Positions 58,848 to 61,253 of a stretch of 64,000 nt of DNA are shown here, piece after piece. Source of the stretch: Candidatus Obscuribacterales bacterium (GTDB lineage Bacteria > Cyanobacteriota > Vampirovibrionia > Obscuribacterales > Obscuribacteraceae); the NCBI GenBank assembly GCA_965228855.1, contig CBDDIJ010000002.1:1568001-1632000 (forward strand), read 5' to 3'. A program made the position numbers and the translations under genes. Each line of letters opens with the position of its first letter. Position 1 is the stretch's first letter. The notes below the pieces were generated by a model. The model was given only the letters and a program-made list of their open reading frames with translations, made no database searches and was not told the origin of the DNA.

Positions 58848-60227
58848 TTAAGGTTTCAACCGGTTGATGTCGCGTGGAAACAGCGCTGTTTGCTTGATTG
58901 TGGGCAAGCCTAGAAGTTGTTTCGTTATGCGTTCCAATCCGATTGCCAGACCACCGTGCGGCGGCATGCCGTATTTGAAGCACTGCAAATACTCCGCGAA
59001 GTCCTCGGGATTCAGACCACGGCCGGCTATTGAGTTGCAGAGCTCTTCGTACTCGTGGATACGCTGCCCGCCTGTCGTCACCTCGAGTCCGCGGAACAAC
59101 AAGTCGAAGCCGCGGCTCATCTTCGGCGAATTGCCGTTCGAGAGCGGTTCCGTCAGTGGATGGGTGTAGAACGGTCGTGCTGCCAGTGGATAGTGTTTCA
59201 CGTACAGAAGTTCGCAACCGGTCTCTTTGCGGAAGTGTTCGCACAGTAATCGCTCGCCTTCTGGGTCCAGGTCGCTCTCTCCCTCCTGCTTCCAACCGAG
59301 TTTTGAAGACAAAAGTTTCAACGCTTCAGTCAGGCTGATTTGAGGAATCGTTTCAAACTCAGGAACTTCAGCTCCGTACATCGCCAACTCTTCTACACAA
59401 GTTTCTTGTACGTGTGCGAAAATATGGCGCAGCAAGCGGACCTGCATGTTGATGATGTCTTGCTCCGATTCGATAAATCCCATCTCGAAGTCGAGGCTTA
59501 TGTACTCGTTCAGGTGTCTCGAAGTGTCGTGTTCTTCAGCGCGATAAACTGCTGCTGTTTCGAACACGCGTTCATAAACGCCGACCATGATTTGCTTGTA
59601 GAACTGTGGACTCTGAGCGAGAAACGCGTTAGTTCCAAAATAGTCGAGTTTGAACAGCTGAGCACCGCCCTCGGTACCAGTCGCCACAATCTTTGGAGAA
59701 TGAATTTCAACAAAGTTTTCCTTCGTAAGAAACTCGCGGAACGCTTGTGTGATTGCCGCTTCGATTTTGAAGATTGCCTTCACCTTTGGGTTTCGAAGAG
59801 TGATCGGTCTATAGTCAAGCAGCGTTGAAAGACCGAGCGAATCCATTTTTTGTTCTTTCGATAGCTCGACCGGCGGAATTTCTTTGTTATGGGCAAGTCG
59901 TTTGAGAACCGTCGCTTGAATCTCGGAACCGCCTTCCTTGCGCCCCTGCGCAACGACTAATCCTTGAACACGCACAGGTGTTTCAAGAACTATTTCACGT
60001 GCAACTGCGACAAGCGATTCTTTTTCGACGACTACTTGGATAATTCCTGAGGCGTCGCGAACGTTCAAGAAATAGAGTTTTCCAAGGTCGCGCAGCGAGT
60101 GTACGTGCCCGGCGATATGCACGACATCACCGATTCGTCGCGTAGCTTCCTTGACGGAAATTCGCTCCTCCGTACACTCACATTCCTCACATTCACTTTC
60201 CGATTTGCTTTTCAATTCAGTACTCAT
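58848..60227 (-). CDS. aspS: Archaeal-type, probably non-discriminating aspartate--tRNA(Asp/Asn) ligase
   Basis: OB fold, EGGAQLF, LAQSPQFYKQ, YRAEEHDTSRHLNEY, TTGGQRIH and YGMPPHGGLAIGLER. About 460 aa, lacking the bacterial GAD insertion. ATG 60227 follows SD GGAGG. Confidence 0.92.
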   Translation of the reverse strand: MSTELKSKSESECEECECTEERISVKEATRRIGDVVHIAGHVHSLRDLGKLYFLNVRDASGIIQVVVEKESLVAVAREIVLETPVRVQGLVVAQGRKEGGSEIQATVLKRLAHNKEIPPVELSKEQKMDSLGLSTLLDYRPITLRNPKVKAIFKIEAAITQAFREFLTKENFVEIHSPKIVATGTEGGAQLFKLDYFGTNAFLAQSPQFYKQIMVGVYERVFETAAVYRAEEHDTSRHLNEYISLDFEMGFIESEQDIINMQVRLLRHIFAHVQETCVEELAMYGAEVPEFETIPQISLTEALKLLSSKLGWKQEGESDLDPEGERLLCEHFRKETGCELLYVKHYPLAARPFYTHPLTEPLSNGNSPKMSRGFDLLFRGLEVTTGGQRIHEYEELCNSIAGRGLNPEDFAEYLQCFKYGMPPHGGLAIGLERITKQLLGLPTIKQTALFPRDINRLKP

Positions 60228-60236
60228 AACGCCTCC

Positions 60237-60268
60237 AAACAAAAAACCGCAACTCTCAGAGTCGCGGT
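60237..60268 (-). terminator. Attenuator terminator in the aspS leader
   Basis: Minus strand ACCGCGACTC-TGA-GAGTTGCGGT followed by TTTTTGTTT, immediately before the aspS SD. Confidence 0.88.
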
Positions 60269-60323
60269 CGTCGTATTTTTTGAGGTTGTTTACTTCGCTA
60301 ACACCACAAAACAGACGACCGCG
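60263..60323 (-). promoter_or_regulatory. Antiterminator helix of the aspS attenuator
   Basis: CGCGGTCGTC (60323-60314) is perfectly complementary to GACGACCGCG (60272-60263), which overlaps the 5' arm of the terminator. Confidence 0.85.
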
Positions 60324-60375
60324 CTGGGCGATTATCTGCGTCGTTATTATTATTGTTAGCGATGTTGAACAACAC
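60298..60375 (-). CDS. Asn/Asp-rich leader peptide of aspS (25 aa)
   Basis: GTG TTG TTC AAC ATC GCT AAC AAT AAT AAT AAC GAC GCA GAT AAT CGC...TAG = MLFNIANNNNNDADNRPARSSVLWC. Weak SD (AGGT) upstream. Confidence 0.8.
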   Translation of the reverse strand: MLFNIANNNNNDADNRPARSSVLWC

Positions 60376-60422
60376 GATGTTGAAACCTAATTTTCCGCGA
60401 GCCGATTGCTTGCGATTTATTG

Positions 60423-60452
60423 ATCCTACGGCCGACTTTTCGGTCGCGTCAA
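60423..60452 (-). promoter_or_regulatory. Putative sigma70-type promoter for the aspS leader
   Basis: Minus strand TTGACG-N18-TAGGAT. Confidence 0.55.
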
Positions 60453-60549
60453 TGATCTGTTAACTAACCCGCCAAAGTTTTTTTAGTCTGCGCAATTCAT
60501 CTTAGACATTGAAGTAGTATAAATACAACCAAAGACGGAGCGCGCCGAG

Positions 60550-61179
60550 ATGACGCATTCAGAACCTGCTAGTCCTTGCGAGACTTTTCTCCGCAAAGTT
60601 CGAGATGTTCCGATTCCGGACGCAATCAATGCGGGGCTCGAGACCCTCGTGCAAGCCGTCGATGCTGAGCAGGGTTCGATATGTTTGATCGTTCATGATG
60701 TAATTAAGGTAGCCTACCGATTTGAGCGAGGTTCGCGTTCGACCGAGATTGATGCGGTCACCCTATCAGCGCAGAAAGCCATGCAACTGGTACTTGGGGT
60801 GATGGGAGCGCGATATGACATACCGATTTCGTTCGATAACTCGGACTCCGCGAAATTGCATTGGGCGCCGTTCTTTGAACTTTGTGGTGCGGACTATCGT
60901 TCTAACCTGATTGCACATCTTGGTTTTGGCGGAGCGTTCCTCGGAATTCTGACCGCTCAATCAAATCGTGGAGACTCGTTCTCCAGCGATCAATTAAGGC
61001 AATTCATGATGATGGCAAATGCAATTTCTTTCGCGATCCATCACGAAAGGCTTGTAGAGAAGCTCCAGGACGAAATTGCCTTTTTCGAAAGGGCGCATCC
61101 GAACTCCAGCCGGGCGGACCAAACCTGGGAAGGCTGGATCGCTGAGTCCAGGTCCATAGACGCGAACAGTGATTCGTAA
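60550..61179 (+). CDS. Stand-alone GAF-like domain protein
   Basis: SD acggag. GAF-like pattern: DAEQGSICLI, SNLIAHL...FLGILTAQ and FSSDQLRQFMMMANAISFAI. Confidence 0.65.
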   Translation: MTHSEPASPCETFLRKVRDVPIPDAINAGLETLVQAVDAEQGSICLIVHDVIKVAYRFERGSRSTEIDAVTLSAQKAMQLVLGVMGARYDIPISFDNSDSAKLHWAPFFELCGADYRSNLIAHLGFGGAFLGILTAQSNRGDSFSSDQLRQFMMMANAISFAIHHERLVEKLQDEIAFFERAHPNSSRADQTWEGWIAESRSIDANSDS

Positions 61180-61253
61180 TCTTGTCCGAAGTGAGCGCAA
61201 CAGAGAAGAAAATCGATGGGCTTCCCAGCTGCGTCTAAAGAAGACGACTAAGT

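Follow-up and report, generated by a model that had tools for sequence, protein, structure and literature searches.

A putative asparagine/aspartate leader-peptide attenuator precedes an archaeal-type aspartyl-tRNA synthetase gene across the Obscuribacteraceae

Within a 64,000-nucleotide (nt) stretch of a Candidatus Obscuribacterales genome (hereafter the window, to whose positions all coordinates refer unless a contig is named), the gene for a second, archaeal-type aspartyl-tRNA synthetase (aspS2, encoding AspRS2) is preceded by a leader that combines a short upstream open reading frame (uORF) rich in Asn and Asp codons with an antiterminator helix and an overlapping intrinsic terminator. Sequence comparison and folding models together make it very probable that this is a real leader-peptide attenuator, shared throughout the family Obscuribacteraceae of the class Vampirovibrionia. 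With similarly high confidence we read it as a ribosome-mediated transcription attenuator that would induce AspRS2 in response to a shortage of Asn-tRNA(Asn) and, in second place, of Asp-tRNA(Asp). The leader shows the testable defining features of leader-peptide attenuators, its protector hairpin apart.

All parts of the leader lie with aspS2 on the minus strand, and a coordinate check located the promoter, the uORF, the pairing arms, the terminator, and the Shine-Dalgarno (SD) sequence and ATG of the synthetase gene where the initial annotation of this DNA had put them (Table 1). Five of the uORF codons are consecutive Asn codons, and codons 1-15 include seven Asn and two Asp. The proposed spacing of about 20 nt between these codons and the antiterminator arm holds for the five-Asn run, which ends 19 nt before segment 2, and not for the last Asn codon, which ends 7 nt before it. 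Folding of the 201-nt leader gives z = -3.3, none of 200 shuffles being as stable. Only three small open reading frames (ORFs) of the 8.2-Mb genome pass the same Asn/Asp filter, the aspS2 leader included; its two companions consist simply of repeated AAC, and one of them reads poly-Gln in a long frame. The promoter match at this locus alone is weak (three found versus 1.1 expected); in 29 of 33 relatives, however, a TTGAC..-10 match precedes the tract, compared with 2.9% of shuffles. At the Rfam gathering score the window returns two tRNAs and no leader family, and the leader itself draws three chance matches to unrelated families (E 1-3, best E 1.1).

Table 1. Elements of the aspS2 leader in the window, and eight further probable leaders in the same genome
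Feature	Position	Strand	Basis or detail
Predicted sigma-70-like promoter, TTGACG-18-TAGGAT	60423..60452	-	TTGACG 60452-60447, TAGGAT 60428-60423; promoter/terminator scan
TAGGT, weakly SD-like, 9 nt upstream of the uORF GTG	60385..60389	-	about -3.6 kcal/mol with the anti-SD
Leader uORF, 25 codons, GTG (or adjacent in-frame TTG) to TAG, MLFNIANNNNNDADNRPARSSVLWC	60298..60375	-	short-ORF list; frame open in 36/36 non-redundant leaders
Sensor tract NNNNNDADN, 8/9 codons Asn/Asp	60331..60357	-	sequence reading
Segment 1, predicted protector hairpin 5' arm (last Asp/Asn codons and next Arg codon)	60328..60342	-	folding
Segment 2, antiterminator 5' arm, within the uORF	60314..60323	-	10 bp with 60272-60263; covariation
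Segment 3, common to both helices (3' arm of the antiterminator, 5' arm of the terminator)	60263..60272	-	pairing, covariation
Predicted intrinsic terminator hairpin (segments 3:4), 11 pairs, -16.7 kcal/mol	60245..60269	-	covariation
Terminator U tract	60237..60246	-	sequence, terminator scan
GGAGG, SD of aspS2, not part of the hairpin	60232..60236	-	sequence
aspS2, archaeal-type AspRS, 459 aa, probably non-discriminating, ATG at 60227	58848..60227	-	profile models, structure relatives
Eight probable leader attenuators elsewhere (L118-L125; Met, His, Trp, Leu, Thr, Ile/Val/Leu, Tyr, Phe/Trp)	G000:C2:1923953-, C3:1552775+, C3:2451516+, C3:3641020+, C3:2639924+, C3:3643086+, C3:413709-, C5:327490-		

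Examination of related genomes indicates that the arrangement belongs to the family. An aspS2 orthologue (E below 1e-125) is present in 31 of 37 family genomes and in none of 24 genomes of other families, where the best match reaches 33% identity. Tract, GC-rich arm, stop codon, hairpin and U tract recur together at all 28 loci with upstream DNA (of 30 loci), which, with the covariation described below, bears out the conservation of the Asn-rich uORF and of both helices on which the initial annotation had staked its proposal. Among the 110 loci examined overall, 43 carry the tract with a standard terminator and three come without upstream DNA; at one, L041, the tract is kept and all three arms have changed together. 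A sequence-only model was built from 33 of these leaders, ten of the 43 having been dropped as identical or nearly so (L002, L006, L038-L040, L042, L044, L047, L048 and L055). Searched with this model at E 2e-5 or better, 87 of 104 family genomes, training genomes included, each give a single match, and every one of the 42 model-match loci returned adjoins aspS2; the model misses the diverged NDDDD leader of L179. At L025 (G016:C5:1452500-1453828) the aspS2 match is interrupted by one in-frame TGA and the leader is intact.

Among the loci inspected outside the family, the arrangement was not encountered. A tract with a terminator of the aspS2-leader type within about 300 nt upstream occurs at none of the 63 orthologue loci of other lineages (L053-L117 minus L055 and L096), five of which reach 5/10 Asn/Asp codons without a terminator; many of these loci may sit inside operons, and leaders may therefore lie further upstream there. 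Among 112 genomes from the class's other families, 30 give weaker matches to the model, and the 13 inspected include no Asn leader before aspS and five Met leaders.

That the tract is read as Asn/Asp is indicated by 36 non-redundant leaders, in which the frame was picked by Asn/Asp content, the start codon (sought within 40 codons) forming no part of that choice. A start codon is found in the Asn frame of all 36 leaders and in the +1 frame of ten, and the +2 frame is closed throughout (0/36). Asn and Asp account for 276 of the 309 tract codons (AAT 137, AAC 55, GAT 43, GAC 41, others 33), with 192 Asn to 84 Asp, or 2.3 to 1, and Asn usually first. This ratio amends the earlier suggestion that one leader senses both products of the enzyme: the leader would be mainly an Asn sensor. 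The codons themselves vary among AAT, AAC, GAT and GAC, and the remaining peptide is free: leaders run from about 16 to 56 codons, and no residue outside the tract is conserved apart from the usual Arg.

These counts also bear on two other explanations of the tract. The AAU/GAU repeat might be a protein-binding RNA of the TRAP kind, or the +1 frame might encode an Ile/Thr/Met leader, a proposal favored by other loci of the class (L169-L171, L173, L177), at which this nucleotide repeat encodes Met leaders in the +1 frame, and by the weak SD of the uORF. We give it very little credence, as interruptions of the tract are whole codons, the ten +1 starts include none in the window genome while the Asn frame has one in 36/36, and the downstream gene fits Asn/Asp and not Ile/Thr/Met. 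Alternatively, the leader might sense slow decoding of NAU codons, that is, a lack of queuosine in tRNAs with GUN anticodons, and not amino-acid supply; AAT indeed makes up 71% of tract Asn codons (137/192), compared with 43% genome-wide. No His or Tyr codon occurs among the 309 tract codons of the 36 leaders, however, Asp codons are unbiased (GAT 43, GAC 41), and separate His and Tyr leaders precede their own genes, which leaves a queuosine sensor hardly credible. Weak matches outside the family had at first looked like His/Tyr/Asn/Asp leaders and hinted at queuosine; their DNA shows +1-frame Met leaders, and the hint was discarded.

We assessed the two helices by covariation across the leaders, using structures drawn from the window's own sequence and 500 shuffles that ignore relatedness. 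For the terminator, 93.8% of cells are paired, 36 changes are two-sided, 6 of 10 pairs have a two-sided change, and no shuffle reaches the score (0/500). For the antiterminator, 78.8% of cells are paired and 32 are two-sided, with a score of 0.216 versus 0.121 that is likewise reached by 0/500 shuffles; the number of its pairs with a two-sided change is unexceptional (80/500 shuffles). The GCGG:CCGC core of this helix is almost invariant and has no covariation of its own. Core pairs form in 31 of 33 leaders; in the other two, L015 and L043, the pairing moves to a shifted register on that terminator arm. Of the 31, 18 have 8 nt between the end of the last Asn/Asp codon and the core.

The reading frame of the core raises the further alternative of peptide-sequence arrest, as in TnaC or SpeFL, with the C-terminal Arg as the arrest motif: in 27 of 31 leaders GCGG occupies a single frame, where it usually yields an Arg codon, and the stop most often falls 22 nt after the core. 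L024 nonetheless has Trp-Trp at this place and keeps the RNA pair as U-G, the core lies in other frames in L012, L016, L018 and L019, and L014 stops before reaching it. Together with the wide range of peptide lengths and the absence of another conserved residue, these exceptions make an arrest peptide very unlikely.

To describe the switch, we folded transcripts of the 33 leaders ending in the terminator loop, with an assumed ribosome footprint whose mask reaches 18 nt upstream and 8 nt downstream of the A-site codon. The mean probability P of the antiterminator is 0.96 with the ribosome on the tract (258 positions) and 0.07 with the ribosome beyond it (337 positions), and the switch point falls within about one codon of the tract's end. 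Masks of 5, 11 or 14 nt on the 3' side move the boundary by one to two codons and leave the early tract open. The initial annotation's idea that a ribosome stalled on Asn/Asp codons frees the antiterminator thus agrees with the model, as does masking of the arm by translation past the tract. The part of that idea that placed masking at the TAG itself applies only partially: because segment 2 ends 13 nt upstream of the stop, a ribosome there covers the arm only in part, and with the stop codon in the A site P is 0.28 for the window leader and 0.55 on average over the 33. On this model, masking is likelier to be exerted during transit of codons 16-25, followed by refolding of 1:2, than at the stop.

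The mechanism that we propose runs as follows. Transcription would start about 40 nt before the GTG, with a ribosome following the polymerase. If Asn-tRNA is scarce, the ribosome would wait on the tract, covering segment 1 and leaving segment 2 free; 2:3 would then pair ahead of the synthesis of segment 4, with read-through by the polymerase. If the tRNA is charged, the ribosome would be over segment 2 (codons 16-25) as segment 3 appears, and after its release 1:2 could refold, so that 3:4 would form and transcription would end in the U tract, close to 60240. The AspRS2 induced in this way would make Asp-tRNA(Asn), whose amidation by GatCAB would restore Asn-tRNA(Asn) and close the loop.

AspRS2 scores 535.7 bits against PRK05159 (cut-off 353) and 384.3 bits against TIGR00458, the aspartate--tRNA(Asn) ligase model (cut-off 368.4). 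It is without the bacterial insertion domain and colinear with 1n9w, the Thermus thermophilus AspRS2, which is its best solved relative (E 1.4e-120). Hidden Markov models thus agree with the archaeal type assigned at the outset and also favor the assigned non-discrimination between tRNAs, which by sequence is probable for AspRS2. Its anticodon domain has the His which, with a loop Pro (both in 1n9w and 1wyd), we take to be a determinant of non-discrimination; discriminating 3nel has Trp there, and 18 aligned family proteins have His in eight and Gln in six. Across these 18 proteins the anticodon-domain loop is variable. The window protein also has a short Glu/Cys-rich N-terminal extension that is absent from most relatives.

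As the initial annotation had suggested looking for, asnS, gatCAB and a second aspS are all present: profile matches identify AsnRS, two GlnRS, GatA, GatB and GatC, and a bacterial AspRS, with gatA, gatB and gatC at separate loci, none behind the aspS2 leader. AsnRS exceeds its cut-off in 53 of 61 family genomes, and AsnA was not found in the window genome, which is 95% complete. The presence of AsnRS, GlnRS, GatCAB and a bacterial AspRS without AsnA makes aspS2 the likely inducible entry to tRNA-dependent Asn synthesis, and, given the AsnRS and the bacterial AspRS, an accessory biosynthetic route and not a housekeeping synthetase. Both tRNA-Asn genes begin with U1-A72, which PMC9976931 describes as a determinant for amidation by GatCAB. 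According to PMC4206432, Thermus and Deinococcus have the same enzyme set, and there the second AspRS works with GatCAB to form Asn on tRNA. No Asn/Asp leader was found before asnS, bacterial aspS, gatB or the asnB-like gene, two scores of 5/10 falling in neighboring coding sequence. Both GlnRS genes (G000:C5:870389-871996 and C4:35621-37153) score above cut-off, one of them in a 762-codon frame on a 182-kb contig. One tRNA-Asn gene lies in an array of about 21 tRNA genes (G000:C3:724518-727973); a second cluster holds five (C3:1529761-1530653), and some anticodons across both clusters are unusual.

Several observations weigh against the reading of the leader as an attenuator of a non-discriminating synthetase. 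The uORF SD is weak: no more than 13 of 36 leaders reach -4 kcal/mol or better, and ATG is the best start in just half of them (18 of the 36, against 9 GTG and 9 TTG, some uncertain). Without a ribosome, the short transcript forms the antiterminator in 79% of leaders (mean P 0.79). At equilibrium the full transcript favors the terminator on average whatever the ribosome state (P 0.68 with a ribosome on the tract, 0.98 with one past it), from which it follows that the switch must be kinetic, with 2:3 forming first; read-through would depend on this order, as in other attenuators. The protector is the weakest part of the attenuator model. A weaker pairing (ACGAC/GTCGT) had been raised as possible; a protector is predicted in 30 of 33 folds before segment 3 exists (core paired upstream, P>0.5), with the last Asn codon and the Arg codon after it repeating the terminator-arm sequence. 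This hairpin does not covary, its score being reached by 279/500 shuffles. Two genomes of the family (G069 and G084) have more distant aspS2 genes (L180, at 42%, and L181) before which we could find no Asn/Asp leader. Both lie about 250 nt behind a DDAH/amidinotransferase-like gene, and they are perhaps a separate acquisition. Finally, AspRS2 has Glu at the loop Pro of 1n9w and 1wyd (Lys in 3nel), and 57 of 61 family genomes have an AsnB-family gene that exceeds the TIGR01536 cut-off, with one copy in the window genome.

The last two points lend themselves to a rival account in which the attenuator is the same and the enzyme is a discriminating or auxiliary AspRS, the leader reporting general Asp/Asn supply while an AsnB-like enzyme makes Asn. 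The loop Pro is absent, free Asn synthesis may occur where the AsnB-family gene is present, and 84 of 309 tract codons are Asp, with L022 and L179 dominated by it. Set against these are the excess of Asn codons and their usual first place, and the company kept by the AsnB-like gene, which scores best, below cut-off, with an exopolysaccharide amidotransferase model and lies between glycosyltransferase-like ORFs. Moreover, since GlnRS is present, GatCAB would be left without another evident tRNA substrate. We consider general supply sensing unlikely, although it is the rival we take most seriously, and retain the leader as mainly a sensor of Asn-tRNA(Asn) for a probably non-discriminating AspRS2.

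The aspS2 leader does not stand alone in its genome. In a blind scan, 2956 amino-acid-enriched short ORFs were reduced to 20 rows with a hairpin, a U tract and a downstream gene, and the aspS2 leader was recovered among them. Downstream proteins were annotated at nine other scan loci, and eight match their leader (L118-L125; Table 1): His with hisG, Trp with a trpE-like gene, Leu with a leuA-like gene, Ile/Val/Leu with ilvD, Thr with thrS, Tyr with a DAHP synthase gene, Phe/Trp with another DAHP synthase gene, and Met with cystathionine gamma-synthase. At the ninth, L126, which is the scan's second Asn/Asp-rich short ORF, the downstream protein has no NCBIfam match at 1e-40. Each of the two DAHP synthase genes has two tandem leaders (YYYY twice; FWF twice). 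Plausibly, then, the organism uses leader-peptide attenuation routinely.

Met leaders were also seen in other families of the class. In three small genomes, Met-rich leaders with Cys-rich tails and terminators (L170:1400-1670+, L173:900-1130+, L177:2005-2250-) precede a protein of 440-457 aa with no Pfam match, possibly a methionine transporter or enzyme. At L169:277-975- and L171:1950-2650+, two tandem Met/Thr-rich leaders with terminators precede a small protein ending in Gly-Gly, which in L169 has a weak Urm1 match; this suggests a sulfur-carrier route to methionine under double attenuation. Upstream of the aspS2 leader itself, a GAF-like ORF (60550-61179, plus strand) separates the leader promoter from an upstream hydrolase gene. 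The surrounding stretch 60518-61243 is absent from the 98%-identical relative L002, and a contig of sequencing run X1 skips 724 nt at the same place, which suggests a recent insertion or loss that left the leader promoter intact.

Classical leader-peptide attenuators include trpL, hisL, thrL, leuL, ilvL and pheL, and among synthetase genes pheST. The aspS2 leader resembles these in its short control-codon uORF, its overlapping antiterminator and intrinsic terminator, and its position directly before the cognate gene; it differs in that its control codons are Asn and Asp, its target, an accessory synthetase, would depend on another enzyme for the Asn product, its antiterminator arm lies wholly inside the uORF, some seven codons from the stop, and it has no Rfam family match. 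Control of the tRNA-dependent Asn route at the RNA level, with redundant pathways and two-tRNA input, was reportedly the subject of work by Saad in 2012 and 2013, to go by the titles. A clostridial T-box binds uncharged tRNA directly, whereas the sensor of the aspS2 leader is predicted to be the translating ribosome, and no T-box (RF00230) match was found in the window or the 95%-complete genome. As described in PMC4206432, the T. thermophilus and D. radiodurans systems (1n9w, 3kfu) likewise have a second archaeal-type AspRS beside AsnRS, GlnRS and GatCAB; the window genome departs from them in its AsnB-family gene and in the missing Pro of 1n9w.

Attenuation of synthetase genes has precedents, as described in two papers: trpS2 and leuS of Streptomyces are leader-peptide attenuators (PMC1262725), and cysS uORFC-8-2 of Rhodobacterales is a uORF attenuator, with Asn and Asp absent from the text and one supplement (PMC8632094). 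A Shewanella aspS leader has been predicted, with no peptide named in the portion available (PMC2659441), and the accessible part of PMC2965389 mentions neither aspS nor asparagine. From cyanobacteria, a 2016 paper states that there were no reliable data on attenuation (PMC4833913). No Asn leader-peptide attenuator appears among the literature matches listed. The mechanism is textbook, which limits surprise; the Asn/Asp specificity and the accessory-synthetase target are, provisionally, new.

Taken further, these findings point to a view of the family to which we assign slightly less than an even chance. The Obscuribacteraceae may govern tRNA-dependent Asn synthesis by a ribosome-read Asn sensor that rations a mischarging AspRS2, made only when Asn-tRNA fails, and so limits Asp-tRNA(Asn) and Asp-for-Asn errors; the leader would be a translational counterpart of the clostridial T-box and part of a full attenuator regulon (Asn, Met, Tyr, Phe/Trp, Trp, His, Thr, Leu, Ile/Val) in the cyanobacterial sister group. 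If the attenuator is confirmed, the list of amino acids that leader peptides are known to sense would gain asparagine, the indirect Asn-tRNA route would come under ribosome feedback rather than a T-box, and the 150-nt device would be a candidate Asn-tRNA reporter. With nine cognate leaders in one genome of a non-photosynthetic sister class, it becomes testable whether phototrophs lost attenuation or it arose here. For this uncultured lineage, the leader would itself be genomic evidence of the use to which its second AspRS is put.

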